Origin: an uncultured Actinomycetes bacterium
GTDB lineage: Bacteria; Actinomycetota; Thermoleophilia; Gaiellales; Gaiellaceae
Assembly: GCA_963831405.1 (NCBI GenBank)
Contig: CAWHPX010000011.1
Coordinates: forward strand, 29,148 to 93,147
Length of the DNA stretch: 64,000 nt
Direction of reading: 5' to 3'
A model generated the notes under the pieces. That model was given only the letters and a program-made list of their open reading frames with translations. It was not told where the DNA came from and did not search any database. Shown here one piece after another: positions 9,560 to 64,000 of this stretch; position 1 is the stretch's first letter, and every line of letters starts with the position of its first letter. The position numbers and the translations under genes were made by a program.

Positions 9560-10258
9560 ATGAACGCCTCCGGCCCCCTCGTCGCGCGCTGGCTCTCGGT
9601 CCGGCGCGCGCAGGTCGAGGCGGGCACGCTCGTCGGGATCGAGATCGAGGTGGAGAACGCCGGCAGCGCACCGTGGCGCACGCGCGGCGTCGAGGACGGC
9701 CTCTTCCTCTCGTACCACTGGCTCGACGAGCGCGGCAACCCGATCGTCTGGGACGGGCTGCGCACCCCGCTCGAGCACACGGTCGCACCGGGCGAGATCC
9801 TCCGGCAGGCTCTGCCGGTCCGGGCGCCGATACCGCCGGGCCGCTACCGCCTCGCGCTCGACCTCGTCGAGGAGCATCGCTTCTGGCTCGCGGAGCTCGG
9901 CAACCGCCCGTACGACGAGGCGGTCGAGGTCGGCCCGCGCGACGCGAGCGGCGCGCGCGTCTTCGGAGCGGAGCCGGGGCCCGACTGGATCGAGCGTGCG
10001 CGCGAGCTGCACCGCGAGGGGTTCGCGGCCGTCGGCGGCGCGATCGACGCGCGGCGCTTCCCCGACCACGCCCCGGGCGGCGGCCGCCATCCGCGCTTCC
10101 CGCATCCGCTCGTCTGCCCGTCGCTCCTGCCGCCGCTCGAGCCGAACACCGAGGTCGAGGGGCTGCCGGCCTACCGCCCGGAGGGAGACGAGCCGTTCAT
10201 GTTCGACGGGCGGCTCGTGCTCAGACCTCGATCGCGATCTGGTCGTCAACGCTCCTGA
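9560..10258 (+). CDS. hypothetical protein with an Ig-like (NBR1-like) N-terminal domain
   Basis: 232 aa. The N-terminal ~110 aa (VEAGTLVGIEIEVENAGSAPW ... LSYHWLDERGNPIVWDGLRTPL ... PPGRYRLALDLVEE..FW) resemble the beta-sandwich domain often found in bacterial glycan loci. The 3' end overlaps wzm convergently. Confidence 0.6.
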   Translation: MNASGPLVARWLSVRRAQVEAGTLVGIEIEVENAGSAPWRTRGVEDGLFLSYHWLDERGNPIVWDGLRTPLEHTVAPGEILRQALPVRAPIPPGRYRLALDLVEEHRFWLAELGNRPYDEAVEVGPRDASGARVFGAEPGPDWIERARELHREGFAAVGGAIDARRFPDHAPGGGRHPRFPHPLVCPSLLPPLEPNTEVEGLPAYRPEGDEPFMFDGRLVLRPRSRSGRQRS

Positions 10259-11018
10259 AGACGAGCGCGCCGGCGACGAGCGCCACGGCGCACGCGACCA
10301 CGAGGTAGAGCGCGTCGCCCCAGAAGGGCAGCGTCCCCTCGAAGAGCGGCGCCCGCACCGCTTCGACCGCGGGCGCGAGCGGGTTCGCCCAGTGGATGAA
10401 CTGCACGACCGTGTGGTGCCGGTCGAGCGCCGTGCCGGCGAGCGGGTAGAGGATCGGCGTCAGGAAGAACAACGGGACGAGCAACGCGGCGACGATGAAC
10501 TCGACGTCGCGGAACAGCACGTTGAGCGAGGCCAGCACGAGCGCGAAGCCGCACACGAGGCCGACGAAGAGGACGCTGAGCGGAATCGCGAGCCACTCGG
10601 TCGCGCGGACGCGCGAGAGGGCGGCGAAGTTCACGACGAGCAGCAGCGCGAGCATCACGTAGAAGCTGACGAGATGCGCGAAGACGACGGAGAGCGGCAC
10701 GAGCTGCCGGGGAAAGCGCGTCTTGCGGATCAGGTTCGCGTTGTCGAGCATCGAACGCGTCGACGACTGCACGGCCGCGCCGAAGAACGTCCAGAGCGCA
10801 AGCCCGGTGAGGAGGAAGAGCGGGTAGTGGCCGCCGCTTGCAAAAGGCGACTTCCACACGACGCCGAAGACGAGGAGGTAGACGCCCATCAGCATGACCG
10901 GGTTCGCGACCGTCCACAGGACGCCGAGCGCCGAGCCGCGGTACTTCGCCTGCAGGTCGCGCCGGAAGAGGTTGCCGAGCAGCTCGCGGTAGCGGATGAC
11001 GTCGAGATACGTGCTCAT
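10221..11018 (-). CDS. wzm: ABC-2 type polysaccharide exporter permease (Wzm/TagG family)
   Basis: MSTYLDVIRYRELLGNLFRRDLQAKYRGSALGVLW is the classic ABC-2 N-terminus, followed by 6 predicted TM segments. Start at ATG 11018 overlaps the upstream methyltransferase stop (ATGA). Confidence 0.88.
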   Translation of the reverse strand: MSTYLDVIRYRELLGNLFRRDLQAKYRGSALGVLWTVANPVMLMGVYLLVFGVVWKSPFASGGHYPLFLLTGLALWTFFGAAVQSSTRSMLDNANLIRKTRFPRQLVPLSVVFAHLVSFYVMLALLLVVNFAALSRVRATEWLAIPLSVLFVGLVCGFALVLASLNVLFRDVEFIVAALLVPLFFLTPILYPLAGTALDRHHTVVQFIHWANPLAPAVEAVRAPLFEGTLPFWGDALYLVVACAVALVAGALVFRSVDDQIAIEV

Positions 11019-11959
11019 CTGCGGGGGAGCCCGTGCCCACTGCGCCGCCCGTAGATCGACACGCCGGCGTAGCGCCCGATGCTCAGGTGCGAAAGCGTGC
11101 CGAGCGTCATGCCGACCTTCGGCACGCGCGAGAGGAGGTAGCCGAACGGCATCGGCGGCCAGCCGTCGGAGCGCTCCATGCGGCGCACGACGACTCCCGC
11201 ACGCGTGAAGGCGCTGAGATACGACCACACGGTGTGCACGTGCTCGTTGATGCCGAGCTCCTTCTCGCCGGCCTGCTCGGGGTTGTCGGAGCTCCGGCCG
11301 ACGCCGCGCGTTCCCTCGTTCAGTCCGGCGACGACTCCGCCCCGCCGCGTCACGCGCGCCATCTCGCGGACCATCTTCGGCAGGTCGAGAGCGTGGTGCA
11401 GCGTGGCGACGCAGTAGGTGATGTCGAAGGTCGCGTCGGCGAACGGCAGGTTCTCTCCGTCGGCCTGCACTCGCCCGAAGTCGCCGTAGAAGGCGCCGCG
11501 ACCGAGGCCGATCTTCGGATCGACGAGGATGTCGGTCGCCACGTACTCACACTCGCGCTCGAGCCAGAAGCGCGCCGCCCAGGCCTTTGCCGCGCCGACC
11601 TCGAGCACGCGCAGCCCGTGCGCGTCCCTGGCGTAGCGGTCGAGGAGCACCTGGAACGAGTGGCCGTTCGCGAGCCAGTTGGGATCGTTCCAGCCGAGCT
11701 CGCGGTTCACGAAGGGGAGGACGCGGTCGACCGCGTCGTCCGGCTCGTACCACCCCTCGGCCCGCGCCTTCTCGAGCCAGCCTCCGGCCTCGATCAGCTT
11801 CTCGCGGGCCCCGGGCAGCTCCTCGTGGAGCATGAGCGGGATCCCGTCCGGAGAGCGCCCGAAGCGCCGGGAGCAGCCGGTGCACACGAGCCCGTCGCCC
11901 TCCTCGCGGAGCGCGTGCCGGCAGAACGGGCAGCGGAGGATCTCGAGGAGCGGCGGCAC
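11015..11959 (-). CDS. Trm112-like zinc-ribbon + class I SAM-dependent methyltransferase
   Basis: N-terminal CPFC...CTGC ribbon, then a methyltransferase core (LEVGAAKAW, ITYCVATLHH, GGVVAG). Start preferred at GTG 11959 (TAGGTT box 7 nt upstream). The track ORF extends to 12007. Confidence 0.75.
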   Translation of the reverse strand: MPPLLEILRCPFCRHALREEGDGLVCTGCSRRFGRSPDGIPLMLHEELPGAREKLIEAGGWLEKARAEGWYEPDDAVDRVLPFVNRELGWNDPNWLANGHSFQVLLDRYARDAHGLRVLEVGAAKAWAARFWLERECEYVATDILVDPKIGLGRGAFYGDFGRVQADGENLPFADATFDITYCVATLHHALDLPKMVREMARVTRRGGVVAGLNEGTRGVGRSSDNPEQAGEKELGINEHVHTVWSYLSAFTRAGVVVRRMERSDGWPPMPFGYLLSRVPKVGMTLGTLSHLSIGRYAGVSIYGRRSGHGLPRR

Positions 11960-11966
11960 GGGGGAG

Positions 11967-11972
11967 AACCTA
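11967..11972 (-). promoter_or_regulatory. candidate -10 hexamer (TAGGTT on the minus strand) for the leaderless methyltransferase-wzm operon
   Basis: TANNNT lies 7 nt upstream of GTG 11959. Confidence 0.3.
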
Positions 11973-12026
11973 CAGGGCGGGAATCCCGGCCCGTCTCCCC
12001 CAAACACCGCTCTTACAGCACTTCGT

Positions 12027-12032
12027 TAGGCT
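12027..12032 (+). promoter_or_regulatory. candidate -10 hexamer (TAGGCT) for the leaderless WecA-like fusion gene
   Basis: TANNNT lies 6 nt upstream of GTG 12039. Confidence 0.35.
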
Positions 12033-12038
12033 GCGCGC

Positions 12039-13853
12039 GTGACGGTCGCGCTGGCTGCCCTTGCTGCGCTGCCGGCGAGTCTCCTGACGATCCGGGCGCT
12101 CCTGCACACTCCGGCCGCGCTGCAGGTCTCCGCCGCGCCCCGCGCAGACCGCTGGCACACGCGCTCGACCCCGCTCCTCGGCGGAATCGGCATCTTCGCC
12201 GGGCTCCTCGTCGCGGCGGGCGTCGCCCTCGCGGCGGGCCTCATGCCCCTCTCGCGCGAGCTCGGCGGCATCCTCGGCGGCTGCGCGATCCTCTTCGCCG
12301 CCGGCCTCGTCGACGACGTCTTCCGCCTGCCGCCGCTCGCGAAGCTCGCCGCCCAGGGCGCGGCCGCCGCCCTCGTCCTCGTCGCCGGCGTGCGGGTCGA
12401 GATCGTCGGCAACCCCGTCGCGGCGACGGCCATCGGCGTTCTCTGGCTGATCGGGATGACGAACGCCTTCAACCTCCTCGACAACATGGACGGCCTCGCG
12501 GCGACGCTCGCGGCCATCGCGTGCGCGTTCTTCGCCGTCGACGCGTACACGGTGCACCCGAGCCACATGATCGCGGTGCTCGCGCTCGGGATCTGCTTCG
12601 CCTGCCTCGGCTTCCTGCCGTACAACCTGCGGCTCAGCCGTCCTGCCGCGGTCTTCATGGGCGACAGCGGCAGCCAGGTGCTCGGGTTCGCCCTCGCGGC
12701 TCTCGGCCTCGCCTCCAGCTGGGCGGTCGCCGGCTCGACGGCGGCGACGTTCCTGCTGCCCGTGCTCGTCCTCGCCGTGCCGATTCTCGACACCACCCTC
12801 GTGACGGTCGTCCGCCTCCTGGAGGGCCGGCCCGTGACGCGCGGCGGGCGCGACCACACGTCGCACCGGCTCGTCTACCAGGGGCTCTCCGACAAGCGCG
12901 CCGTCGTGCTGCTGGGCGTCGTCTCGGCTGCGCTCGGCCTCACGAGCCTCGCCTACAAGGTGCTCGACGACACCCGCATCACGCTTGCGGGCGTCCTCAT
13001 CACCTTCGCCTTCCTCCTCCAGTTCGGGAGCTACCTCGCCGAGGTCAACCGCCCGCCCGTCGAGGCGGACGCCGGCTCCTTCCTCCGCTCGCTCTTCGTG
13101 CACCGGCGCCGGCTCGTCGAGGTGCTCGTCGACTTCGCGCTCATCGCGGCGTCGTTCACGGTGGCGTACATCATCCGCATCGAGGGCAGGGGCAGCATCT
13201 GGGACCGTCACGTCTTCAACCTGTCGCTGCCGGTGCTCCTCGTCGCGCGGTACCTGTTCTTCGTCGGCTTCGGGCTCTACCGCGGCGTGTGGCGCTATGC
13301 GGGGGCGCGCGACGCCGCGAGCATCTTCTCGGCGGTCGTGCTCTCGGAGTGCGCCGCGTTCGGCTTCATGTCGCTGACGATCTCGTGGCGAGACTTCCCG
13401 CGGGGGACATTCGTCATCGACGCCATGCTCTGCACGATGCTGATCGGCGCTTCGCGCTTCTGGGAGCGCGGCGTCGCACACGCGCTGCGCACGGTCGTCG
13501 ACCGCGGAGGGCAGCAGCGGACGCTGATCGTCGGCGCGGGTAGAAGCGGGCGCAGCCTGCTGCGGGAGCTTCGCGAGACGCAGGGCGTCCGCGTGGTCGG
13601 CTTCGTCGACGACGACCCTGCGTTTCGCCGCCGCCGCATCCAGGGCGTGCCCGTCGTCTCGAGCCTGGACGAGATCGGCTGGACGCTCGGACGGCTGTCG
13701 CCCGACACGGTGCTCGTCACGATTCCGGCGGCGGAGCGCGCACGTCTCGAGGCGGTCATCGAAGCGTGCCGCCGTGCCGACATCGCGTGCCGGTTCGTGC
13801 GCCGCGAGGTCGATCTCGACCCGGGACACATCCTCGGAGCAACGGCCGAGTGA
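12039..13853 (+). CDS. polyprenyl-phosphate N-acetylhexosamine-1-phosphate transferase (WecA/MraY superfamily) fused to a CapD/WbpM-like N-terminal TM + CoA-binding-like module
   Basis: Residues ~1-330 carry NAFNLLDNMDGLA and VFMGDSGSQVLGF (PNPT motifs). Residues ~350-604 carry 4 TM segments, YRGVWRYAGARD, and LIVGAGRSGRSLLREL...VVGFVDDD...VLVTIP, with no SDR catalytic domain after it. Confidence 0.8.
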   Translation: MTVALAALAALPASLLTIRALLHTPAALQVSAAPRADRWHTRSTPLLGGIGIFAGLLVAAGVALAAGLMPLSRELGGILGGCAILFAAGLVDDVFRLPPLAKLAAQGAAAALVLVAGVRVEIVGNPVAATAIGVLWLIGMTNAFNLLDNMDGLAATLAAIACAFFAVDAYTVHPSHMIAVLALGICFACLGFLPYNLRLSRPAAVFMGDSGSQVLGFALAALGLASSWAVAGSTAATFLLPVLVLAVPILDTTLVTVVRLLEGRPVTRGGRDHTSHRLVYQGLSDKRAVVLLGVVSAALGLTSLAYKVLDDTRITLAGVLITFAFLLQFGSYLAEVNRPPVEADAGSFLRSLFVHRRRLVEVLVDFALIAASFTVAYIIRIEGRGSIWDRHVFNLSLPVLLVARYLFFVGFGLYRGVWRYAGARDAASIFSAVVLSECAAFGFMSLTISWRDFPRGTFVIDAMLCTMLIGASRFWERGVAHALRTVVDRGGQQRTLIVGAGRSGRSLLRELRETQGVRVVGFVDDDPAFRRRRIQGVPVVSSLDEIGWTLGRLSPDTVLVTIPAAERARLEAVIEACRRADIACRFVRREVDLDPGHILGATAE

Positions 13854-16067
13854 CCGCAGTGACGACGCGGCGCGTCGACGAGGCGCGGCCGCGGACCACC
13901 ACTACCGACCGGCTGCTCGCGGCCGTGCCGCTCGCGAGCATCTACCTCTGGCTCTCGATCGTCTACTGCGTCGAGGCCTGGAAGCGCACGACGCCGTGGC
14001 TCTTCACCGACGAGCTCGAGATGACGCAGATCTCGCGCGCGATCGCGGCGACCGGCCACGCGGCGCGGCGCGGCGAGCCGTACAAGTTCCGCTCGCTCTA
14101 CACCTACATGATCGCGCCGCTCTGGTGGATCAACGACGTTGCGAATGCCTTCTCGGCGATCAAGTACGTCGACGTCCTCGTCATGACCTCGGTCGTCTTT
14201 CCGACGTACTTCCTCGCCCGCCTGCTCATGCGGCGCGGCTGGGCGCTCTTCGCAGCCGCAGGCGCCGGCGCGCTGCCGTCGCTCGCCTATTCCTCGTGGA
14301 TCGTCGAGGAGACGCTTGCCTACCCGTACGCCGCCCTCTGCTTCTTCCTGATCGTCAAGGCCTTCATCGAGAGGCGCCGCGGGTGGATCGCCGCGGCGAT
14401 CGCGGCGTCGCTCGTCGCGCCGCTCGTGCGCGGCGAGCTCGTCGTCGTCCCGATCGTCCTCCTGATCGCGACGCTCTTCGCGCTGTGGTCGAGCGACTCG
14501 TTCCAGCGGCGGCGCGAGTCGTGGTCCGTCGGCGACTATCTCGGGGTCGTCCTGATCGTGCTCGGGGTCGATCTTCGCGCTGAGCGCGGTCGCGAGCCAC
14601 CACTCGCAGCAGTGGTACGGCGTCACGACGTACTGGAAGCACCGCGCCATCGTTCTCGGCGACTGGGCGGCCGGCGCGCTCGCGATCGGCATGGGCGTGA
14701 TCCCGCTCGTCGTCGGTCTCGCCGCGCTCTTCGCCGCGCGCGGCGAGGAGCGCTCGCGCGAGGTGCGGATGTTCCGGAGCGTCGCCTCGGCCGGCATCAT
14801 CGGCTTCGCGCTCTACACCGGCATGAAGGCGGCGTATCTCCAGTCGTCGTTCGCGACGAGGGTCGAGGAGCGCAACCTGATCTACATCGCGCCGCTCCTC
14901 TTCGTCGGCACGGCGCTCGTCTTCGACCGGCGCCGGGTCAGCCTCCCCGCGCTCGCCCTCGCCGGGGCGTACGGCTTCTACCTCGTCGTCGGCACGCCGT
15001 ACCAGATGGGCGTGCAGCTCTACTCGGACGCGCTCGGCTTCGCGATCCTCGAGCAGGCGAATCGCTTCTACGAGTGGACGCCGTCGGCGGCCCAGTGGCT
15101 TCTGATCGGGATTCTCCTCGGCGGCCTCCTGATCGTCGCCGCGCTGACGACGCCGCGGCTGCGAAGGGTCGCGCTCGCCGCGTCCGCGGTGCTCGCCGTC
15201 GGCATTCTCGCCTGGAACGTGACGGGCGAGATCTCCGCCGCGGCCGGGAACGTGTCGATCGCCCGCGACGCGGGCGGCATCCTGCGCCACCCCTTCACGT
15301 GGGTCGACGACGTCGCGAAGCGCAAGCCGACGCTCTACCTCGCGCAGGGCGTCGCCGATCAGCGCGCCGAGTGGCTGCTCGAGTTCTGGAACCGCTCGCT
15401 CACGTACATCAGCAGCTTCGACGGCACGCTCCTCGGGCCCGGCCCGAGCGGGGCGCCGAACATCACCGCCGACGGCAGGCTCTACTGGACCTCGCGGCCG
15501 GACGACCCCGGGCGCGTGTACGACTACGCGGTCGAGGACGGGCCGTGCGTCGATCTCGCGGGCTCGCTCGCGCAGACGCACAGCTATCAGGGCCCGTCGG
15601 AGAGCGGCCTGCAGGAGTGGCGGCTGATCCGGCTCGCGAAGCCGAACCGGCTCCGTGCGGCCTGCCAGGGCATCTACCCGGACGGCTGGACGGGGCAATA
15701 CGACAGCACGTACTTCCACTTCACGAACGCCGACCGGGGCTGGCTGCGCATCGACATCTCGCGGCAGAACTGGCCGGGCAGCCCGGTTCACATCCAGTTC
15801 GGCGCGATCCGCACGCAGTTCAAGGAGCCGGCGGTCGGCACGATCTTCCGGCAGCTGAAGCTCGACGTGCGGAGCGGGCACCCGAGGGTGGTCTGGCTCC
15901 GCGCGCCCGCCGGGCGGTTCGGCGTCCGCGTCGTCGTCGACAGGAAGTTCGTGCCGCGAGAGGTCAGCCCCGCGCGCTCCTCGGATCCGCGCGTGCTCGG
16001 CGCGCAGGTCGACTACCGGTTCTTCAGGAAGCTGCCGCCCGGCGCGACGCCGCAACAAGGAGGGTGA
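13850..16067 (+). pseudogene. GT-C-like polytopic membrane glycosyltransferase with a C-terminal extracytoplasmic domain (paralogue 1); one apparent +1 frameshift near 14560-14572
   Basis: GTG 13850 overlaps the upstream stop (GTGA). N-part (frame of track ORF 13766): TDELEMTQISRAIA loop motif and multiple TM segments. It continues in the frame of track ORF 14691 (IFALSAVASHHSQQWYG...). The span of 2218 nt is 1 mod 3. Clear paralogue of the C-terminal half of 20409-23747. Confidence 0.75.
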
Positions 16068-16633
16068 ACCGGAACCGGAGCAGGAGCCGTGCGAGCGGCC
16101 CGCTCCGCTCGAGCGCCCGGAGGAGCCGGCAGCGCGCGGGTCTGGGGGACGAAGAAGGGCCTCGTGTCGACCCGGTCGAAGCCGGCGGCTCGCAGGTCTG
16201 CGGTGACGTCCGCGAGCGCGTACTGGCGCGGGTTGAGGTCGAAGACGAGCTTCGTCTGCGTGTAGCCGGCGATCTGCTGCAGCAGCGCGCGGCGGTCGCG
16301 CGCGTAGTAGATCGCGCGGAAGATCGTCGTCGCGTGCACCGGCTCCGGCGGCGCGTAGTCGTTCAGGTCGGCGAGCACGATCTCGCGGCCACGCTGCCGC
16401 CCCGCGGCCACCATCGCCTCGCTCGCGTCGACTCCGACGTAGCGCTGCCCGGGCAGGAAGTCGCCGAGACCGCCGTCGCCGCACGCCAGGTCGAGCACGA
16501 TGTCGCCGCTCGAGAGCTCGGGCCCGAGCGTGCGGACGAGCTCGGCCCGGTGGGCGAGGTAGGCCCGTGCGTCGGCGTACTCCCGGTCGGTCCAGCTGCT
16601 CGCCTTCGCCTCGTACTTCTCCCAGCTCGTCAT
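16013..16633 (-). CDS. class I SAM-dependent methyltransferase
   Basis: MTSWEKYEAKASSW..., then VLDLACGDGGLG (motif I) and VGVDASEAMV. The ATG overlaps the upstream GT2 stop (ATGA). The last ~18 codons overlap the convergent gene and look low-complexity, so the 3' end is uncertain. Confidence 0.7.
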   Translation of the reverse strand: MTSWEKYEAKASSWTDREYADARAYLAHRAELVRTLGPELSSGDIVLDLACGDGGLGDFLPGQRYVGVDASEAMVAAGRQRGREIVLADLNDYAPPEPVHATTIFRAIYYARDRRALLQQIAGYTQTKLVFDLNPRQYALADVTADLRAAGFDRVDTRPFFVPQTRALPAPPGARAERAARTAPAPVPVHPPCCGVAPGGSFLKNR

Positions 16634-17395
16634 CGCAGCGCGAGGATCCGCTCGGGATGCTTGCGGAGGAAGCGCAGCATCGCGCGCGCGTGCCAGAGCG
16701 TGTGCCTCGTGAGGAACTTCTTGTCGATCACGGCGGCGTACTCGTGGTGGACGATCGCCGCCGGGACGTACCACCGTTCCCACCCGGCCTTCGCCGCGCG
16801 GTAGTTCAGGTCGATGTCCTCGCAGTACATGCGGAAGCCGGGGTCCCAGCCGCCGATCTCGTCGAGCATCGTCCGCCGCAAGAGGATGAACGCGCCGAGC
16901 ATCGTGTCGGTCTCGACCGGCTCGCCCGGGTGGTCGTCGAGCAGGTAGTGGCGTCGCTGCCAGCGCAGCGGCGGAAAGAGCAGCCTCAGGGGCGTCCGCC
17001 GTACGAGCGTCGCGCCGACGGTCGGGAAGCTGCGCGCGCGACGCTTGCCAGGTTCCGTCGCTGTACAGCATCTTCGGGCCGACGGCGCCCGCGCGCGGAT
17101 GCGACTCCATGAACCCGCGCAGCACCGCGACGGCCCCGGGCTCCGGCAGCGCGTCCGGGTTCGCGATCAGGACGAGCTCGTGGGCCGTGTGCTCGGCGCC
17201 GAGGTTCGCATTCGCGGCGAACGAGAGCGGCGCGTCGTTCGTGATGACGCGCGCGGAGGGCGGCAGCTCGGCCGGGAGGCTGCCGGGCACGTTCGCGATC
17301 ACGAGCAGCTCGTCGACCTGCGCGGCGAGCGCCGGCAGCGAGTGCGCGAGCTCGGCTGCGTGCCCGTGGGAGATGACGACGGCGCTGACCTTCAC
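16630..17395 (-). pseudogene. GT2 glycosyltransferase (rhamnosyltransferase-like); one apparent +1 frameshift in a GCGCGCGCG tract at about 17029-17046
   Basis: N-part VKVSAVVISHGHAAEL...NDAPLSFAANANLG...LIANPD is in one frame. C-part SFPTVGATLVRRTPLR...GAFILLRRTMLDEIGGWDPGFRMYCEDIDL is in another. The span of 766 nt is 1 mod 3. Confidence 0.75.
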
Positions 17396-18406
17396 AAGAG
17401 CGCCTCACGGTAGACATCGGCGGTGAGGCGCGCCGTCCGCGCCCACGAGAAGCGCTGCGCCTGCTCGAGCCCGGCGCGCAGACCAGCGCTCCGGGTCGGC
17501 GAGGACTGCTGCGAGCGCCCGTCCGAGCTCGGGCGGCTCGGCGTAGGCGACGGCGTCGCCGCCGACCTCGCGCACCGCGGGATCGGGCGTCGCGACGACC
17601 GGCGTCCCGCAGGCCATCGCCTCGACGACCGGCAGCCCGAAGCCCTCGTGCCGCGTCGGGAAGATGAGTGCCGCCGCTCCCTGCACGAGGCGCACGAGCT
17701 CGTCGGCCGCGACGAAGCCGCGGACGTCGGCTCCACGCGCGCGGAGCTCGGCGGCGAGGGCCCTGTCTCGCTCCGGCCCGACGACGACGAGCTGCCGCCC
17801 CGCCTCGCGGGCGGCCTCGGCGGCGAGCAGAGGATCCTTCCGCCGTTCGATCGAGCCGGAGAGGAGGACGTAGTCGCCGCGCTCCCCGCCGCCCGGCCGG
17901 AACGCCGGATCGGCGGCGAGCGGCGTGACCACGATCTTCTCCGGCGCGAGGCCGTAGAGCTCGACGAGGTCGCTCTTCGTCCGCTGCGAGATCGCGAGCA
18001 CACGCCGTGCGCGCCGGGCGGAGCGCGGGACGACGAGCCGGAAGATCGCCGTCTCGCGGCGCCCCATCAGCGAGGCGTCGTGCTCGAACGAGAGGTCCTG
18101 CACCGTGAGAACGGCAGGGCAGGGAAGCGCGAGCGGCAGCGAATGGACGAAGTGCACGAGGGCGGGGCGCAGCCGGCGAAGCAGGAGCGGCACGCGCACG
18201 GCCATCCGCAGCTCCTGGCTCCGGGCAGGCAGCTCGACCGGCTCGATGCCGGGCGGCACGAGGTCCGGCCGGCGCGTGATCGCGGCGAACCGGAGCCCCT
18301 CGCCGACGGCCGGCAGCGCGCGCAGGAGGCTCGCGACGTAGGTCTCGTCGCCCGTGCGCCTGCGGCCGAGCACGTCCGCGTCGACGACGACGAGCGGGTC
18401 GCTCAT
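17392..18406 (-). pseudogene. GT4-type glycosyltransferase 1; one apparent +1 frameshift near 17478-17492 affecting the last ~30 codons
   Basis: MSDPLVVVDADVLGRRRTGDETY..., EGFGLPVVEAMACGTPVV. The conserved C-terminus GLRAGLEQAQRFSWARTARLTADVYREALL is in the adjacent frame. The span of 1015 nt is 1 mod 3. Confidence 0.75.
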
Positions 18407-55490: not shown

Positions 55491-56634
55491 AGGCGTTCGC
55501 GCTCGCCGTGGTCGTCTTCGCGGCCGCGTGCTCCCTCCCGAACGTCGGGCTGTGGAGCGCATCCGGCAAAGCAGACACGGGGCTCTACCGGCTCTACGGC
55601 GAGAAGGTCGTCGACGGCCACATGCCGTATCGATCCGGGTTCTCGCTCGAGTTCCCCCCGGGAGCCATCCCCGCCTTCGCCGTTCCCGCCCTTCCCGGGC
55701 TCGCACTACGTCGTGTGGTTCCACCTCTTCCAGTTCGCGTGCGGCGTCCTCGCGATCGGAGCGGTCGCGTACGCGCGCCGCGGATACCTGCCACCGCTCG
55801 TCCTCGCCGTCGCGCCCGCATGCCTCGGGCCGATCACCCTGAATGCCTTCGACCTCTGGCCGGCGGCGCTCTCCGCGTGGGCCGTGGCGTTCACCATCCG
55901 CGGTCACCCGCGACTCGGAGCCGCCCTGCTCGGCGCGGCGACCGGAGCAAAGCTCTATCCCGCGCTCCTCGCTCCCGCGCTCCTCTCCTACCCCGCCCGG
56001 CGCGAGGCGCTGCGTGCCGCCGTCGTGGGCGTCGTCACCGCGGGCGCCGTCTTCCTGCCGTTCGCCGCCCTCGCGCCCGGCGGGCTCCGCTTCAGCCTCC
56101 AGGAGCAGGCGACGCGGGGGCTCCAGGTCGAGAGCCTCGGCGGCGCGGCGTTCGGGGTCGCGCACCGTCTCGGCGCCGGCGGTGCACGTCGTCGTGAGCC
56201 ATGCACCGTTCTCGTTCGACGTGGGCGGCAGGGCGGCGAGCGCCACGGCGGCGCTGTCGTCCGCGCTCGTCCTCGCCGCCGTCGCGCTCGCGTGGTGGCT
56301 CCTGCGCCGGGGGCCGATCGACGACGCGCGCACGGCGTTCGCGGTGACGGCCGCGGCCGTGGGCTTCGTCGCGTTCGCGAAGGTCCTGTCGCCGCAGTAT
56401 CTGCTCTTTCTCGTGCCGCTCCTCGCGATGGTGCGCTCGGCGGCGGCGTGGGCCGTCGGCCTCGCGACGCTTGCACTCACGCAGGTGTGGGCGCGATTCC
56501 CGGAGCCGTTCCTCCGCACCGTGCACTTCGGCCCCCTGATCTGGGTGACGGCCCTGCGGAACCTCGCGCTCGTCGGCCTCTACCTGCTCCTCGTCAGCCG
56601 GCTCGCGCGCAGCCGGACGACGAGTGCCGCATAG
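55487..56634 (+). pseudogene. GT87/DUF2029-like membrane glycosyltransferase; two apparent +1 frameshifts (about 55693-55703 and 56170-56183)
   Basis: Three frame segments: MKAFALAVVVF...LYGEKVVDGHMPYRSGFSLEFPPGAIPAFAVPALPG, then HYVVWFHLFQF...GAKLYPALL...LQVESLGGAAFGVAHRLG, then AVHVVVSHAPFSF...AKVLSPQYLLFLVPLL. Colinear with paralogue 56580-57746. The span of 1148 nt is 2 mod 3. Confidence 0.7.
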
Positions 56635-57746
56635 AGCGCGACGACGAGAACGTCGCGTCCTGCGACCCACCAGGTGAGCGCAGCCTTGTAGTGGTCGGTC
56701 TCTGCTCCGGCTGCGTGGAACCGATCGAAGACGACGTGCGTGAGCACGAGGACGACCGCAACGAGCGCGCCGAAGCCGATCCCCGCTGCGGGGACGAGCG
56801 GGACGAACCATGTCGTGTACTGCGGTGAGAAGACCTTGCCGAATGCGACGAAGGCGACGACGGCAGCAGACGCAGCGGCGAGCACGTCCCTCCGCCTTCG
56901 TGCGAAGAGCCAGATCGCGAGCAGCACCGCGGCCACGACGACGATCGACGAGATCACGCCGATCGCGTCGGGCAGCGAGCCGACGACGTTCTTCGAGCCC
57001 GGAGGCTCGTCGCGCAGCGTCGCGTGGTAGACGCCGAGCCGGTCGGCGACAAGGAGCACCGCCCCGCCGAGGCTCTCGACCTCGAGGCCGCGGCGAAGCT
57101 GGACCCAGTAGCTGAAACGGAGACCGCCCGGCCCCATCACGGCAAAGGGCAGATGCACGAGCGCGAGCGTCGCGCCGAACCACAGAAGCGCGCGGCGCAG
57201 CGCGTCTCTCCCCCCACGCTCCCAGGTCTCCACGAGGGCGAGCGGGAGCAGCACGAGCGGGAATATCTTCGCCGCGACGGCGAGCGCGAGGAGCAGGTAC
57301 GTCGTGCGCTCGCGACCGCGAAGGAGCGCGAGCACTGCACCGATCGTCAGCGCAGCGGGAAAGAGGTCGTACGTGTTGAGGAACACCGGCCCCGCGAGAA
57401 GCGGCGAGAGGCCCGCCACCACGGCCGCGGCGAGCATGCGGGGCGACGGCGTCCGCATCGCGGCCACCATCAGGACGACCGCGGCGGCGCCGCAGAGCGC
57501 CATGACCCACTTGAAGGTGGTGGGGAACGGCCCCGGCAGGACGCGGATGAGGAGAAAGAGCGGCTGCGCCAGGACCGGGTACTCGTCGAAGAAGTCGCGA
57601 TACGGCCAGAGCCCGGACGTCATCTCGTGCGCGTAGTGGCCGTAATACGCGACGTCGCCGTACCTCGCCCTGTCGAAGAGCCCGCCGGGGCCGACGGCCG
57701 CGCTCACCAGGAAGAGGCCCGCGCCGAAGAGCGCGATCCGCCTCAC
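56580..57746 (-). CDS. GT87/DUF2029-like membrane glycosyltransferase, intact
   Basis: YGHYAHEMTSGLWPYRDFFDEYPVLAQPLF, AAKIFPLVLLP, GLEVESLGG and GKVFSPQYTTWFVPL. GTG 57746 overlaps the upstream stop. The 3' end overlaps the convergent paralogue by 55 nt. Confidence 0.75.
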   Translation of the reverse strand: MRRIALFGAGLFLVSAAVGPGGLFDRARYGDVAYYGHYAHEMTSGLWPYRDFFDEYPVLAQPLFLLIRVLPGPFPTTFKWVMALCGAAAVVLMVAAMRTPSPRMLAAAVVAGLSPLLAGPVFLNTYDLFPAALTIGAVLALLRGRERTTYLLLALAVAAKIFPLVLLPLALVETWERGGRDALRRALLWFGATLALVHLPFAVMGPGGLRFSYWVQLRRGLEVESLGGAVLLVADRLGVYHATLRDEPPGSKNVVGSLPDAIGVISSIVVVAAVLLAIWLFARRRRDVLAAASAAVVAFVAFGKVFSPQYTTWFVPLVPAAGIGFGALVAVVLVLTHVVFDRFHAAGAETDHYKAALTWWVAGRDVLVVALYAALVVRLRASRLTRSR

Positions 57747-59041
57747 CGGCGCGACCAGGCGGCTGCGCCGGTGCCGATCGCCGCCAGCGAGAACCCGAGG
57801 ACGAGGATCGCCCCGACGTTGCGGTTCGGCACGATCCAGGCCCACGTGGTCTTCGCGATGTCGTTTCGCGACGGCACCCACGACGAGTCGTCGAAGCGGC
57901 GCACGCCCCACGTCATCGAGTCGACGCTCGTCAGGGCGGCGGAGGCGAACGCGAGCGCGAACGTCGGCCGCGGGAAGCGCACGAGCGCACAGGGCAGGCC
58001 GAGCGCGAGGAACGGCAGCGCGGGCCCGATGAACCGCGGCCCCGGCGACTGGCCGCCGTAGGGGAGGAAGTACCCGGCCGCGACGAGCACGAATACGAGC
58101 GACAGCACGGAGGCGACCAGTGCCTCCGCTCGATCGCCGCGCCGCCAGAGGAGCCACAGCCCGACGAGCGCTGCGAGCACGACGGGCGAGAAGACGAGGA
58201 GGCCGCGCGTCCCGACGAGGACCTGCCGCAGGCCGTCGAGCGTGGGGACGCCGATGCCGAAGAAGCCGTGGTGCTGCTGCTCCGCGAACGGGTTGGCGAC
58301 GTAGCGGTACGACAGATGAAACGGCGAGCCGAAGGCGGCCCAGTCGTACGCACCGAGGGCGATCGCCCCCGGAACGCCGCCGAGGAGAAACCAGCCGACT
58401 CGCCGGCCCTGACGCACGACGACGTGGACCGCAAGCACGAGCACGACGAGCCCCGCGGCGTACTGGAAGAGCACCGCCGCGCCCGCAAGGAGCCCGCCGA
58501 GCAGGAGCGCAGCCCGTCCGCGGCCGAGGAGAAGCGCGGCGAAGGCCCCGATCGCACAGGCTGCAGCTGCATCGTGCTCGAAGAAGGTCGGCGCGAGCGG
58601 CGCCGCCATCGTCGCGACGCCGAAGATCGCGGCCGTGGCGGCGCCCGCACCCGCGACGAGCCTCTCCGCGAGACGGCCGACGAGCACGACCGCGGCGAGG
58701 AACATGACCCCGGAGGTGAGGACGCGGAGCAACCAGAGAGAGAGGTCGCCTTCCGGGCTCCACGCGCGGGGCGCCTTCGCGATTCCCGCCGCGCGCTCGA
58801 GGGAGTACGCCGGAACGGCGAGGAACGACATCCCGGGCGCCTTGTCCGAATACGAGCGTCCGCCGTACACCGCTCGATCGAAGAGGCTCGGCTCGACCGT
58901 GAGCGTGTGCTGCAGAACGAGATGCCGCGTGAGCTCGTAGCGGGTCCGGTCCTGCGGCCCGGCCAGGGCGACGACGGGCAGTGCCGCGAGGGCGACGAGC
59001 GCGACGACGATCGGCTCGAACCGGTAGCCGGCCAGAGGCAC
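57743..59041 (-). CDS. GT-C-like membrane glycosyltransferase (ArnT-like, YSDKAPG loop motif)
   Basis: 432 aa with about 11 TM segments. The first loop GGRSYSDKAPGMSFLAVP resembles the DKPP(L/G) motif of the ArnT/GT83 type. GTG start. Confidence 0.65.
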   Translation of the reverse strand: MPLAGYRFEPIVVALVALAALPVVALAGPQDRTRYELTRHLVLQHTLTVEPSLFDRAVYGGRSYSDKAPGMSFLAVPAYSLERAAGIAKAPRAWSPEGDLSLWLLRVLTSGVMFLAAVVLVGRLAERLVAGAGAATAAIFGVATMAAPLAPTFFEHDAAAACAIGAFAALLLGRGRAALLLGGLLAGAAVLFQYAAGLVVLVLAVHVVVRQGRRVGWFLLGGVPGAIALGAYDWAAFGSPFHLSYRYVANPFAEQQHHGFFGIGVPTLDGLRQVLVGTRGLLVFSPVVLAALVGLWLLWRRGDRAEALVASVLSLVFVLVAAGYFLPYGGQSPGPRFIGPALPFLALGLPCALVRFPRPTFALAFASAALTSVDSMTWGVRRFDDSSWVPSRNDIAKTTWAWIVPNRNVGAILVLGFSLAAIGTGAAAWSRR

Positions 59042-59047
59042 GCGCGA

Positions 59048-59085: not shown

Positions 59086-59091
59086 TAGACT
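59086..59091 (+). promoter_or_regulatory. candidate -10 hexamer (TAGACT) for the leaderless GH31 gene
   Basis: TANNNT lies 7 nt upstream of GTG 59099. Confidence 0.35.
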
Positions 59092-59098
59092 GGCCCTC

Positions 59099-61369: not shown

Positions 61370-61379
61370 TGGGACTGGT

Positions 61380-62321
61380 CTAGCGGAGGTCCTTGTTCGA
61401 CTCCATGTCGAACCACATCGCGAAGAGCGTGAACTGCGACCCGGAGATGAGGAGCAGCGCGATCAGGACGACCGTGCCGACGCTGACGTCGTTGCCGGCG
61501 ATGCGGTAGCCGATCTCGATGCCGCCGAGAACGAGGCCCGCGAGCGTCGAGAGGAAGCCGAACGCGTAGAAGAAGACGAGCGGGTGGAAGTCGCGGATCA
61601 CGTACTTCTCGCGCAGGCGCCAGAAGAAGCCCTTCACGAGGAGCCACGAGATGCGCGGCACCACCTTGCGATAGCGGATGCCGGAGCGCTCGCCGACGCC
61701 GTAGATGGGCCGCGACGGAAAGTCGCGCACGCGCGCGTTCCAGACGTTGAGATGCACGAGGAAGTCGTTCGGGAAGCCGTACCCCGTGTAGACGCGGTCG
61801 AGGTCGAGCTCGTCGAGCATCCGCTTCGAGAGAGCGGTGTAGCCCGACTGCGAGTCGGCGATGTGCCAGTACCCGGACGCGATCTTCGTCAGCATCGAGA
61901 GCACGGCGTTGCCGAGGTACCGCGTGCGCGGGATGAGCGTCCACGCCTCGCCCGTCACGAGGCGGTTCGCCTTCGCGTAGTCGAGCTCGCCGCGCACGAC
62001 GGGGAGTGCGAGCAGCTCGAGGTCCGCAGGGTCCATCTGGTTGTCGGCCGCCATCACGCAGGCCACGTCGATGCCGTCGTCGTGGGCGCGCTTGTACCCG
62101 GTGACGATCGCCGCGCCGACTCCGCGGTTGCGCTCGTGCGCGACGATCTCGACGCGTGCGTCGCCGAGCGCACGTGCGCGCTCGACCGTCGCATCGCGCG
62201 ACCCGTCGTCGACGACGTAGATGCGATCGACGAACGCGGGGATGCCGCGCAGCGTCGTCGCGATCAGCTCCTCCTCGTCGTGCGCGGGCACGACGACGCC
62301 GACGCGCTTGCCCTCGAGCAT
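61380..62321 (-). CDS. GT2 glycosyltransferase with C-terminal TM helices (polyprenyl-phosphate sugar synthase-like)
   Basis: VGVVVPAHDEEELIATTL, YVVDDGSRDAT, VMAADNQMDP and ADSQSGYTAL, plus two C-terminal TM segments. The ATG shares 1 nt with the Wzz stop (TGATG). Confidence 0.8.
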   Translation of the reverse strand: MLEGKRVGVVVPAHDEEELIATTLRGIPAFVDRIYVVDDGSRDATVERARALGDARVEIVAHERNRGVGAAIVTGYKRAHDDGIDVACVMAADNQMDPADLELLALPVVRGELDYAKANRLVTGEAWTLIPRTRYLGNAVLSMLTKIASGYWHIADSQSGYTALSKRMLDELDLDRVYTGYGFPNDFLVHLNVWNARVRDFPSRPIYGVGERSGIRYRKVVPRISWLLVKGFFWRLREKYVIRDFHPLVFFYAFGFLSTLAGLVLGGIEIGYRIAGNDVSVGTVVLIALLLISGSQFTLFAMWFDMESNKDLR

Positions 62322-63139
62322 CAGCCGCGGCGGAAGCGGGCGGCGGCGCCGTCCCACACGAGCGCGGCGAGCGCGCCGAGGATGAGCCCGATGAGCGCGG
62401 CGACGACGACCGTGTTGCGGCGGCTGCGGGCGGTGACCTTCTGCGACGCGGCGCCGGTGAGGATCGACGGCGCCTCCACCTGCTTCGCCTGCAGCAGCAG
62501 CTGGCTCGTCTGCAGCTTGTCCGTCTGCGCCTGAGCGAGCCGGATCTGGACGACGAGCTTGTCGGTGGCGGAGAGGCTGCCGCTCTCGAGCGCCGAGTTG
62601 ATCTGCTCGATGTTGCGCTCGTCGTTCGTGATCTGCGCGCTGAAGTTGCCGATCTTCTGGTTCGCGAAGGCGGACACCTTGCCGATGACGGCCTGGGCGA
62701 GCGCATTCGCGGCGCACGACGCGAGCCGGCGCTTCTTCGCCTGCACGCTGATCGAGACGAGCGGCGTCTGCCCGTTCTTCGCGATGTTGCCCGAGACGCT
62801 CTGCGTCGAGATGCCGCCGCGGAAGCTCCCCGCCTTCGCCTTGCACTGCGCGGCGACCTTCTGCACGATGACCTCGGCGTGCGCGATCTGGCGGACGGTG
62901 CTCGGGTTCGTCTGCGCCGCCTGGAGCTGCACGTTGCCGCTCGCCGAGTACGGCTGGCCGAGATAGAGCGTGGCCGTCGCCTTGAACTGCTGGCTTCCTC
63001 CGAGCGAGAGGGCGTAGCCGATGACCGCGCCGGCGACGAGGCCCGCCCCGACGAGCCACCAGCGCGCGGCGAGCGCGCGCCAGTAGCGGCCGAAGTCGAC
63101 CTCCTGCTCGGCCTCGGGATCGAACCGCGGCTCCGTCAC
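62321..63139 (-). CDS. Wzz-like polysaccharide co-polymerase / chain-length determinant
   Basis: N-terminal EVDFGRYWRALAARWWLVGAGLVAGAVIGY (Wzz motif plus TM1), a Q/K/S-rich helical periplasmic region, and a C-terminal TM (VVVAALIGLILGALAALVW). Start at GTG 63139. Confidence 0.75.
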   Translation of the reverse strand: MTEPRFDPEAEQEVDFGRYWRALAARWWLVGAGLVAGAVIGYALSLGGSQQFKATATLYLGQPYSASGNVQLQAAQTNPSTVRQIAHAEVIVQKVAAQCKAKAGSFRGGISTQSVSGNIAKNGQTPLVSISVQAKKRRLASCAANALAQAVIGKVSAFANQKIGNFSAQITNDERNIEQINSALESGSLSATDKLVVQIRLAQAQTDKLQTSQLLLQAKQVEAPSILTGAASQKVTARSRRNTVVVAALIGLILGALAALVWDGAAARFRRG

Positions 63140-63149
63140 GTGACGCCAG

Positions 63150-64000
63150 TCATCCGGCGGCGACTCTAGCGGCTGCCCATGACCACATCCTGGCCAGGCC
63201 GTCCTCGAGCCCGGTCTCGGGCTGCCAGCCGAGCGCCTCGCGGATCCGCGCGATGTCGGCGCTCGTCCGCGAGACGTCGCCCTTCGCACCGCCGACGTGG
63301 CGCACGTCGAGCGTCCGTCCCGAGAGCCGCTCGAGGAGCGCGATCGCGTCGAGCATCGACGCCTCCTCGCCGCCGCCGACGTTCAGGACGGCACCGCGCC
63401 CTCCCCGCTCCATCCCCGCGATCGTGGCTTCGACCGCGTCGTCGACGTAGGTGAAGCTCCGCGACTGCTCGCCGCTGCCGAAGATCTCGAACGTGCCGCC
63501 CGAGAGCAGCGCCTCGCAGACGCGCCGGAAGAACATGTCCGGGCGCTGCCGCGGCCCGTAGACGGTGAAGTAGCGCAGGACGACGGCGTCCAGGGCGAAG
63601 GAGGCCGCGTACGCACGGGCGAGCTGCTCGCAGGCGAGCTTCGTGATGCCGTACGGCGAGATCGGGCGCGGCTCCGTGTCCTCCGGCGTGGGATATGCCT
63701 CCGCTTCGCCGTACACCGACGACGACGACGCGAACACGACCCTGACGCCGGCGTGCGCGCACGCCTCGAAGACGCGCTGCGTCGCGAGCAGGTTGCGGCG
63801 CACGTAGACCGGGAAGATGTCGCCGAAGCTGCGCACGCCCGCCTGCGCGGCGAGATGGAAGACGCCGTCGACGGCGTCGAGGTCCAGGTTGTCTTCTGCA
63901 AGATCGAGCCGCTGCACGGTGAGGCCTGCCGCGTTCGCCTCCTTCTCCGCCGGGTCGTAGTAGTCGGTGAAGCAGTCGACGCCCACGACGTCGTGCCCCG
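63150..64000 (-). CDS. NAD-dependent sugar-nucleotide epimerase/dehydratase (SDR), 5' end beyond the window
   Basis: SSSSVYG, PYGITKLACE (YxxxK), RYFTVYGPRQRPDM and GSGEQSRSFTYVDD. The frame stays open to position 64000 and the Rossmann GxxGxxG N-terminus is missing. Confidence 0.85.
   Translation of the reverse strand, partial: GHDVVGVDCFTDYYDPAEKEANAAGLTVQRLDLAEDNLDLDAVDGVFHLAAQAGVRSFGDIFPVYVRRNLLATQRVFEACAHAGVRVVFASSSSVYGEAEAYPTPEDTEPRPISPYGITKLACEQLARAYAASFALDAVVLRYFTVYGPRQRPDMFFRRVCEALLSGGTFEIFGSGEQSRSFTYVDDAVEATIAGMERGGRGAVLNVGGGEEASMLDAIALLERLSGRTLDVRHVGGAKGDVSRTSADIARIREALGWQPETGLEDGLARMWSWAAARVAAG

Follow-up and report, generated by a model that had tools for sequence, protein, structure and literature searches.

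Does a long run of glycan genes in one bacterium encode a single heteroglycan pathway, or several pathways side by side? We address this question for a 64,000-nucleotide stretch of DNA from an uncultured Gaiellaceae bacterium (the window, meaning the whole stretch). An earlier reading of the letters, here the original prediction, had described 10221-64000 as one locus built around membrane glycosyltransferases (GTs) of fold class C (GT-C) and polyprenyl-phosphate-sugar synthases. Its product would be an uncharacterised heteroglycan or a protein/lipid glycosylation system, elaborated outside the cytoplasm by the assembly logic of mycobacterial arabinogalactan and lipoarabinomannan (AG/LAM).

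Our answer is a composite envelope-glycan locus in which three or four pathways lie as adjacent modules, conserved across Gaiellales. We give this reading a probability of roughly 0.7. It is carried by the family and fold assignments of the proteins and by the synteny and conservation of their genes. Glycosylation outside the cytoplasm from lipid-linked donors, as the original prediction had it, is the best reading of the GT-C and lipid-sugar-synthase-like gene content. Gaiellales, an almost uncultured order, rank with the most abundant Actinomycetota of soil; a search of the literature for Gaiellales envelope glycans or envelope chemistry found no study.

Number of pathways

The window has a G+C content of about 72%, and raw lists of its open reading frames are mostly noise. 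Genes were called by codon-position GC (GC3 frame) statistics, and all gene calls in and around the locus were scanned with Pfam and NCBIfam (Table 1). The region from 10221 to 64000 holds about 47 genes, of which some 43 carry a glycan-related assignment, and this agrees with the prediction that almost every gene from wzm to the window end is of this kind. The 12 GT-B enzymes expected (10 GT4-type and 2 divergent) were found as 11 clear GT4-type genes or domains, namely the GT4 rows of Table 1 and the N-terminal domain of 20409-23747, plus one weak GT-B. The counts of four GT2 enzymes and four methyltransferases were also matched. The same region encodes one CE4 deacetylase and one AsnB-like amidotransferase (both predicted, and both with Pfam matches), gmd with an fcl-like gene, a UDP-xylose synthase, a GH31 glycosidase, Wzm, Wzx-like, Wzy-like and Wzz-like proteins, and two initiating phosphoglycosyl transferases.

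An ABC-transporter-dependent set is complete, with a Wzm permease, a Wzt ATPase and a WecA-type initiator. If the whole 54 kb were a single pathway, it would make one AG/LAM-like heteroglycan, mostly assembled outside from polyprenyl-phosphate sugars. Eight GT-C-type genes and two candidate lipid-sugar synthases in one contiguous syntenic block fit this alternative. So do the structural model for GT-C protein A (13850-16067), which best matches EmbA/B/C and has a C-terminus like a carbohydrate-binding module (CBM), and the second-best NCBIfam match of Wzt, a mycobacterial galactan exporter. However, there are two independent initiators (WecA- and WbaP-type) and two export routes (Wzm/Wzt and Wzx/Wzy/Wzz), and the Arabinose_trans, GlfT, UbiA-type and DprE families had no match among the scanned proteins. 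The presence of about 16 cytoplasmic GT-B and GT-A enzymes implies mainly intracellular synthesis of the polymer, and the right-hand part differs among relatives, which carry either PMT_2 or GT87 at 55.5 kb and may or may not have GH31. A single pathway is therefore improbable, and nothing shows that the 54 kb make one heteroglycan.

GT-C proteins

All eight predicted GT-C-like polytopic proteins are encoded where they had been placed, with 7-12 transmembrane (TM) helices predicted from hydropathy. GT-C support is strong for six of them (20409-23747, 37868-39139, 55487-56634, 56580-57746, 13850-16067 and 29139-30830); 54258-55490 is likely and 57743-59041 weak. None of the eight resembles a transporter, a possibility that the prediction had itself raised. 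The profile search it proposed put two proteins above the PMT_2 cut-off (PF13231; 20409-23747 and 37868-39139) and two above the GT87 cut-off (PF09594; 56580-57746 and the middle frame of 55487-56634). The two GT87 paralogues are 46% identical. Three polytopic proteins, which we call A (13850-16067), B (29139-30830) and C (54258-55490), match no Pfam (E up to 10) or NCBIfam model.

An acidic residue in the first loop after TM helix 1 is a classical hallmark of GT-C enzymes. Directly after this helix, an acidic residue is invariant in A, B and C. The A family has TDELE (T53, E55 and E57 invariant, D54 in at least 90% of sequences), the B family an invariant YQGGDQ motif that includes G61-D62, and the C family an invariant G46-D47. 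Elsewhere, ADEL follows helix 1 in 20409-23747 and YRDFFDEYP in 56580-57746. The loop probably faces outside.

Folds were modelled for B (pLDDT 82.5) and, through the 96%-identical homologue P0121 (pLDDT 70), for the A family. The best membrane-domain matches of both models are all GT-C enzymes, but with E-values of only 7.6e-6 to 2.5e-2 and TM-scores in the range 0.3-0.4. For P0121, the AF2 model matches EmbA/B/C best (7.6e-6 to 1e-3), followed by STT3 and PglB, and CBM folds match its C-terminal domain. For B, the top 22 Foldseek hits include full-length matches (>390 aligned columns) to GT-C enzymes only: AglB, STT3, ArnT, ALG9, EmbB and PglB, at E 7e-4 to 2.5e-2. PDB sequence-profile searches with the A, B and C family alignments gave nothing useful.

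The likeness of A to Emb is at the fold level only. No protein matched Arabinose_trans or a related Emb/Aft (GT53/GT85) family, with the A family tested to E 10; in the original prediction, too, no Emb/Aft-like sequence had been recognised by eye. A is instead paralogous to residues 431-1102 of the 1112-residue protein at 20409-23747 (BLASTP 4e-29, 25% identity over 719 amino acids), and both have the motif PW(L/I)x(T/A)DEL directly after TM helix 1. The larger protein is a fusion of an N-terminal cytoplasmic GT4 domain, a PMT_2 GT-C domain and a C-terminal beta-rich domain, an architecture identical in two related loci (L001 and L003). Stand-alone A is thus a paralogue of the C-terminal 680 residues of the fusion protein. 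Because hhalign found no match of C or B to A, A and B/C appear to be separate GT-C lineages at the sequence level.

C is probably a GT-C enzyme, judging by its family alignment. The deep C alignment (A4) matches the B family in hhalign with 93.9% probability and E 1.5e-7 over 267 columns; a shallow alignment (A3) gives a suggestive E 0.003. The family is small, with 264 clusters (50% identity) in a set of 1.84 billion representative proteins, and C is 77-95% identical to the 120 closest database proteins listed. When 28 divergent members were scanned in Pfam, no common family emerged. For A and for B, the databases contain hundreds to over 1000 relatives, again without an existing model, and a Logan contig is 100% identical to 29139-30830.

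The protein at 57743-59041 falls below the GT87 cut-off, matches the NCBIfam LA_3751/LA_3752 putative GT at 34 bits, and aligns with the B family in hhalign at a probability of 32%. BLASTP and hhalign found no match to its GT87 neighbour. The DKAPG motif after its TM helix 1 presumably recalls the (E/D)KPP motif of ArnT/PMT_2.

A ninth large membrane protein, D (26690-28180), was never claimed as GT-C in the original prediction. It has no match in Pfam (E up to 10), in NCBIfam or in a PDB profile search, and none to the Wzx-like protein of the window. D is kept at the same position in three related loci (L001-L003), and by position only it is a candidate lipid-sugar flippase.

At least one of C, 57743-59041 and D may not be a glycosyltransferase but a polymerase, ligase, acyltransferase or transporter. 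No family match above cut-off was found for any of them; D, with its 14 TM helices, has no relative of known function that could be detected; and the hhalign match of C to B omits the N-terminal region that holds the catalytic loop. Yet C aligns with the B family over those 267 columns at 94% probability and has the invariant Gly-Asp after helix 1, and 57743-59041 combines weak yet consistent GT-C-type matches with its loop motif. We hold such a misassignment to be a serious possibility, if on balance an unlikely one.

Both Dpm1/GtrB-like GT2 enzymes that had been predicted do resemble polyprenyl-phosphate-sugar synthases, with AglJ and PpgS best and below cut-offs. The GT2 at 31185-31970 reaches 103 bits for AglJ, 93.7 bits for PpgS, and also matches a dolichyl-phosphate hexose transferase. 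Its predicted DUF2304-like partner is a true DUF2304 protein, the start of whose gene overlaps the GT2 stop by 4 bases; GT-C gene B ends 8 bases from the DUF2304 gene. The GT2 at 61380-62321 reaches 64.7 bits for AglJ over its full length and 55 bits for PpgS, and has C-terminal TM helices at 248-266 and 284-302, like GtrB and ArnC. Both C and the GT87 group are found no more than 6 kb away.

Some or most of the GT-C enzymes could instead glycosylate proteins or lipids, in the manner of actinobacterial protein O-mannosylation by Ppm1/Pmt or of glycolipid mannosylation by PimE, with the polysaccharide genes as mere neighbours. Protein O-mannosyltransferases and ArnT belong to PMT_2 and PimE belongs to GT87 (PMC12041525), and a Dpm1/GtrB-like GT2 adjoins the GT87 group. 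Against this, A and B carry CBM-like and Fn3-like C-terminal beta-sandwiches, as in the glycan-modifying Emb and GT136 enzymes (PMC11127046). GT-C genes also abut polysaccharide genes, with stop/start overlaps between the WecA-type gene and A, fcl and B, and the AsnB-like gene and its PMT_2 neighbour, and no phosphatidylinositol or phosphatidylinositol mannoside genes were seen. We regard this alternative as unlikely and take glycans to be the probable substrates.

Conservation in Gaiellales

Every close homologue was found in a soil metagenome or in a genome that bears a Gaiellaceae, Gaiellales or Thermoleophilia label. We fetched 80 loci kept around A-family genes in other Gaiellales genomes, all metagenome-assembled. 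The synteny comparison that the original prediction called for shows that gene order is kept in many of these genomes. The locus L004 has 95% DNA identity over 10.1-17.0 kb, and at 19-40 kb L001 and L002 run colinear with the window, their nucleotide identity being about 85%. In one metagenome-assembled genome, a single contig (contig_35777) has its A-type and C-type genes at the same 41-kb distance as the window; the spacing of A and B on contig_6518 likewise agrees.

Genes of the left part (wzt to 25 kb) are present in 41-72 of the 80 loci, with a median protein identity of 51-86%, and wzt is close to the A-family gene in 46. The locus, above all its left part, is conserved in dozens of species-level genomes and so probably encodes a core surface polymer of Gaiellales.

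The right part is more variable between relatives. At the position of 55487-56634, L005 (11260-12738) and L006 (3666-5144) encode a 492-residue PMT_2 GT-C rather than a GT87 protein, which looks like a cassette-like replacement of GT-C types as far as gene comparison can tell. GH31 had no match in any fetched locus; it is absent from L005, and L006 has three genes of no known function instead. In L003, a more distant relative, an insertion beside the B-type gene (11634-16266) holds a GT2, an unassigned 487-residue protein, a GT-C of the MptA_B_family (PF26314) and another GT2. The number of GT-C genes therefore varies between species.

Frameshifts

We found 11 single-base frameshifts in 10 genes of the locus, and the same genes are intact in relatives (Table 1). 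They are most likely consensus errors of the assembly, since the orthologues are intact and protein identity to them is equally high on both sides of each site (87.8% and 88.9% for gmd). The GC3 coding signal is as high after each shift as before. Seven of the 11 sites could be aligned at the DNA level, and all seven are +1 insertions in the window; the one at 14571 is an extra A relative to L004. Over 6.9 kb of comparison with that locus, two single inserted A bases are the sole indels. The translations made contain no frame-disrupting deletions or in-frame stop codons. Automatic annotation of the window sequence would split these genes.

If the frameshifts were genuine, the locus would be decaying to pseudogenes in this strain and its products would no longer be made. 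The 11 disruptions fall within 54 kb with none apparent in the first 10 kb, and at least four (14571, 16124, 25642 and 26111) lie outside homopolymer runs, which is atypical of nanopore errors. But about 1.9 would be expected in the first 10 kb, so that zero is not significant, and the +1 insertions at all seven aligned sites, with undiminished coding signal and identity beyond the shifts, argue against decay. We consider it very unlikely.

Several gene models rest on these comparisons. Protein A is one gene because its homologues have 737-741 amino acids. We rejected a GT2-methyltransferase fusion at 16013-17395: relatives have two genes there, and methyltransferase 2 is a separate 202-residue gene in L004. 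Orthologues of the GT2 at 16630-17395 align to the window in two frames, as does the 354-residue orthologue of the GT4 at 19347-20412. The intact L001 orthologue of gmd has 311 residues; in the window, positions 1-208 and 203-330 of the Pfam profile fall in two frames, and TIGR01472 scores 188 bits on the N-terminal half. For the frameshifted GT4 genes within 44038-48327, Pfam domains are split over frames and the L005 orthologues (333, 366 and 376 residues) align to the window in two.

Proposed pathways

The modules below follow from gene content and order. Donors, acceptors, any cross-feeding between modules and the sides of the membrane are proposals.

In module I (6.4-25 kb), a WecA-type transferase would start a polymer on polyprenyl phosphate, and GT4 and GT2 enzymes would lengthen it in the cytoplasm. 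Methyltransferases probably cap the chain, methyltransferase 1 being a candidate chain-terminating enzyme; Wzm/Wzt would export it, with Wzt_C probably reading the cap. The paralogous PMT_2-type GT-C enzymes, A and the GT4-GT-C fusion, might then act on the polymer outside the membrane. The best NCBIfam matches of wzt are TagH and then mycobacterial galactan Wzt, both below cut-offs. The initiator has 13 predicted TM helices and matches NCBIfam WecA (94.9 bits), and EPS_sugtrans over positions 1-223. This protein is chimeric: a WecA/MraY-type catalytic domain is joined to a non-catalytic N-terminal module (TM helices and CoA_binding_3), which in WbaP/WcaJ-type enzymes usually stands before the catalytic domain. 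The chimera is kept in 70 loci.

In module II (25-34 kb), Gmd and Fcl would provide a GDP-6-deoxyhexose. The original prediction of GDP-fucose synthesis stands as far as the GDP-6-deoxyhexose pathway goes; that the sugar is fucose is only probable. The GT2 and DUF2304 proteins would make a polyprenyl-phosphate sugar, or prime an oligosaccharide on polyprenyl phosphate. B would transfer the lipid-linked sugar outside the membrane, with D as a possible flippase.

Module III (34-52 kb) would make a repeat-unit heteropolysaccharide with a WbaP-type initiator, about eight GT-B enzymes, the amidotransferase (a candidate for uronate amidation), CE4, Wzx and Wzy, and would have its own PMT_2 GT-C enzyme. 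A predicted GNAT at 42282-43142 was not confirmed by its single Acetyltransf_1 match.

Module IV (52-64 kb) would comprise UDP-xylose synthase, the second GtrB-like synthase, C with three GT87-like proteins, GH31 and Wzz. The predicted UDP-xylose synthesis is solid, the next class of short-chain dehydrogenases/reductases (SDRs) scoring 147 bits against 361 for human UXS1. Two secreted glycosidases had been predicted. One, GH31, was borne out, its best NCBIfam match being an alpha-xylosidase at 171.7 bits, below cut-off; the other, 52028-53242, was not, with Pfam scores below cut-offs and no match in a PDB search. Overall, the two lipid-sugar synthases would feed GT-C enzymes that decorate or join glycans outside the membrane.

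Several points weigh against this picture. The module boundaries are our reading of gene order. Foldseek support for B is marginal (E 7e-4 or weaker, TM-scores 0.3-0.4), confidence in the A-family model is moderate (pLDDT 70), and GT-C support for 57743-59041 is weak. Neither GT2 synthase candidate reaches an NCBIfam cut-off, and the Wzx assignment is under its Pfam cut-off. No dedicated flippase of the Gtr/GacIJKL/PpgS type (GtrA, Wzx, MATE) had a family match, which leaves the 14-helix D as sole candidate, and the window has no LCP-type ligase or other anchoring enzyme. Finally, 10 genes would be broken if the frameshifts were real.

The locus really extends from about 6.4 kb to beyond 64 kb (about 58 kb within the window). 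The original prediction placed wzm correctly at 10221 but missed wzt and so began the locus too late. Between wzt and wzm lie hemH (7584-8465), hemE (8523-9539) and a 232-residue gene without known function (9560-10258, + strand), and this heme-interrupted order is kept in about 50-58 of the 80 fetched loci. Further upstream are genes for F420-0:gamma-glutamyl ligase, F420-dependent NADP oxidoreductase and CofD (687-2961), a PolX-type DNA polymerase/PHP-domain protein (HHH_8, DNA_pol_B_thumb and PHP; 3021-5192) and, after it, a D-2-hydroxyacid dehydrogenase (5227-6111). No Rfam RNAs or tRNAs were found in the window.

Table 1. Genes of the envelope-glycan locus, with strand, supporting matches and frameshift sites (aa, amino acids; TM, transmembrane)
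Feature	Position	Strand	Evidence	Frameshift
wzt, ABC transporter ATPase with Wzt_C glycan-end-binding domain	6376-7587	-	ABC_tran 77.5 bits, Wzt_C 40.9 bits
wzm, ABC-2 permease	10221-11018	-	ABC2_membrane 66.3 bits
Methyltransferase 1 with Trm112p-like zinc ribbon	11015-11959	-	Methyltransf_11 51.2 bits, Trm112p 26.8 bits
WecA/MraY-type initiating phosphoglycosyl transferase	12039-13853	+	Glycos_transf_4 102.6 bits, CoA_binding_3 48.6 bits
GT-C protein A, ~739 aa	13850-16067	+	C-terminal CBM-like beta-sandwich	14571 (+1)
Methyltransferase 2	16013-16633	-	Methyltransf_25 30.7 bits	16124 (+1), near 3' end
GT2	16630-17395	-	Glycos_transf_2 26.8 bits	~17030
GT4	17405-18406	-	Glycos_transf_1, Glyco_transf_4 matches (all three GT4 genes at 17405-20412)
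GT4	18403-19350	-	as above
GT4	19347-20412	-	as above	19737 (+1)
GT4-GT-C fusion protein, 1112 aa	20409-23747	-	Glyco_trans_1_4 36.3 bits (aa 189-330), PMT_2 38.6 bits (aa 485-644; cut-off 26.1)
GT4	23744-24778	-	Glycos_transf_1 109.9 bits
Conserved 104-aa protein	24775-25089	-	No family match in Pfam or NCBIfam
Methyltransferase 3	25115-25760	-	Methyltransf_11 58.2 bits	25642 (+1 vs L001)
gmd, GDP-mannose 4,6-dehydratase	25757-26693	-		26111 (+1)
Membrane protein D, 496 aa	26690-28180	-	14 predicted TM helices; between gmd and fcl
fcl-like GDP-6-deoxyhexose synthase (probably GDP-L-fucose)	28207-29142	+	NF047922 302.6 bits, below 500-bit cut-off; stop overlaps start of B
GT-C protein B, 563 aa	29139-30830	+	C-terminal Fn3-like domain; AF2 pTM 0.86
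DUF2304 small membrane protein	30838-31188	-	DUF2304 75 bits (cut-off 25.5)
GT2, candidate polyprenyl-phosphate-sugar synthase	31185-31970	-	Glycos_transf_2 84.3 bits
GT2	31951-32943	-	Pfam/NCBIfam
Methyltransferase 4	32988-33707	-	Pfam/NCBIfam
WbaP/exopolysaccharide-type polyprenyl glycosylphosphotransferase, second initiator	33751-35268	-	Bac_transf 213.8 bits; TIGR03025 376.5 bits (cut-off 295.55)
AsnB-like glutamine amidotransferase	35997-37871	+	Asn_synthase 336 bits; TIGR03108 535 bits, below cut-off
PMT_2-type GT-C, 423 aa	37868-39139	+	PMT_2 48.4 bits (cut-off 26.1); at least 7 TM helices
GT4	39136-40200	+	Pfam
GT4	40204-41304	-	Pfam
Divergent GT-B (weak)	41301-42281	-	Pfam
286-aa protein	42282-43142	-	Acetyltransf_1 at E=0.076 only
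CE4 deacetylase	43139-44026	-	Polysacc_deac_1 64.2 bits
Four GT4 genes	44038-48327	-	Pfam; 45158-46159 intact	~44610, ~46470, ~47662 (three genes)
Wzx-like flippase	48382-49671	-	Polysacc_synt 24.4 bits, below 28.2 cut-off
Wzy-like polymerase	49725-51023	+	Wzy_C 51 bits (cut-off 31.7)
WbpP/WbgU-like UDP-hexose/N-acetylhexosamine 4-epimerase	51110-52027	+	PDB WbpP 1.6e-70
Secreted/anchored protein, weak glycosidase-like similarity	52028-53242	-	DUF5722 26.9 bits, Glyco_hydro_cc 19.4 bits, both below cut-offs
UDP-glucuronate decarboxylase (UDP-xylose synthase)	53235-54173	-	Human UXS1 4.4e-107, 361 bits
Polytopic protein C, 410 aa	54258-55490	+	8 TM helices
GT87-type GT-C paralogue	55487-56634	+	GT87 34 bits on middle frame (cut-off 25)	~55690, ~56190
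GT87-type GT-C (PimE-like family)	56580-57746	-	GT87 39.5 bits (cut-off 25)
Polytopic protein, possible GT-C	57743-59041	-	GT87 16.4 bits, E 0.0077, below 25 cut-off
GH31 glycosidase, N-terminal hydrophobic segment	59051-61369	+	Glyco_hydro_31_2nd 131 bits
GT2, GtrB/Dpm1/ArnC-like candidate polyprenyl-phosphate-sugar synthase	61380-62321	-	Glycos_transf_2 77.5 bits
Wzz-like chain-length protein	62321-63139	-	Wzz 27 bits (cut-off 25.5)
SDR epimerase/dehydratase, cut by window end	up to 64000	-	Epimerase 152 bits

Significance

The principle of pairing a lipid-sugar synthase with a GT-C enzyme is established, and the value of this locus is its breadth and its new families, not a new mechanism. 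New here are unclassified GT-C families, the GT4-GT-C fusion, and conservation across an order without a described envelope chemistry. A, B and C are three candidate new families for a CAZy-type classification, and the halves of the fusion protein, to go by their domains, should act on opposite faces of the membrane.

The locus is also a test bed for whether a 6-deoxyhexose or xylose can be delivered via polyprenyl-phosphate donors. A bolder idea, which we hold to be speculative and rather doubtful, is that Gaiellales have a core wall glycopolymer that parallels the unrelated AG/LAM and is in large part finished outside by at least three GT-C families new to Pfam and NCBIfam (the Emb-like, CBM-bearing A, B and C). 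If true, the fusion enzyme would physically couple a cytoplasmic to an extracytoplasmic step, and the donors could include unprecedented lipid-linked sugars. Candidates would be a polyprenyl-phospho-6-deoxyhexose (e.g. fucose), because fcl overlaps the start of gene B, and a xylose donor, because the UDP-xylose synthase gene lies beside the GT-C group.

Comparison with known systems

No characterised orthologous cluster turned up. The likeness to mycobacterial AG/LAM holds at the level of assembly logic, as had been predicted, but not beyond it, and two other systems described below (GacIJKL and the lactococcal polysaccharide) are closer. As in AG/LAM, many GT-C genes share a cluster with those for a Wzm/Wzt exporter and a WecA-type initiator, Emb structures are the best matches of the A model, whose C-terminus is CBM-like, PimE is represented by its family GT87, and the related locus L003 has an MptA_B_family gene. 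Unlike AG/LAM, the locus has no protein with Emb/Aft sequence membership and no genes for galactofuranose or arabinofuranose donors; its predicted sugars are 6-deoxyhexose, xylose, N-acetylhexosamine and possibly amidated uronate, and a Wzx/Wzy module is present. Glf/GlfT, UbiA-type decaprenylphosphoryl-5-phosphoribose synthase, DprE1/2 and Emb/Aft were all absent from the Pfam and NCBIfam scans of all called genes, and orthology to the AG/LAM cluster was rejected on the absence of these marker families.

The three-component pentofuranose systems of GT136 have a C-terminal CBM on their GT-C enzyme (Kelly et al. 2024, PMC11127046). There too, a lipid-sugar synthase, a flippase and a CBM-bearing GT-C modify a finished, ABC-exported polymer. 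By contrast, no phosphoribosyl-type synthase was found and no MATE flippase was detectable here, and the libraries scanned gave no GT136 match.

GacI/GacJ/GacK/GacL of Streptococcus pyogenes form a lipid-linked glycosylation system (bioRxiv 10.1101/180810). Like it and PpgS/Rv3632/Rv3779, the window has a GT2 (with PpgS among its best matches) and a DUF2304 protein beside a GT-C (30838-31970 with 29139-30830). However, the GT2 at 31185-31970 is far below the PpgS cut-off (93.7 against 370 bits), B has no tool-detectable sequence similarity to GacL or Rv3779, and no flippase is recognised. The neighbours here are GDP-6-deoxyhexose genes, so the sugar may differ.

In the lactococcal dual-chain Wps system, the GT-C enzymes WpsH and WpsJ join a Wzx-flipped polymer, the PSP primed by WpsA/WpsB, to an ABC-exported rhamnan made with TagO/RgpCD (PMC10821137). 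This rhamnose-containing cell-wall polysaccharide (Rha-CWPS) is like the window in several ways. One locus holds an ABC-exported polymer started by WecA/TagO and a second, Wzx-flipped polymer; a GT2 and a small membrane protein of DUF2304 type act on polyprenyl phosphate; and GT-C enzymes polymerise or attach glycans outside the membrane, a role that in the window is known from genes alone. The systems differ in that the window has no rhamnose (rml) genes, its second polymer has a classical WbaP-type initiator, and it has eight GT-C-type genes against two or three. These GT-C enzymes belong to other, partly unclassified families, and their host is an actinobacterium of the Thermoleophilia.

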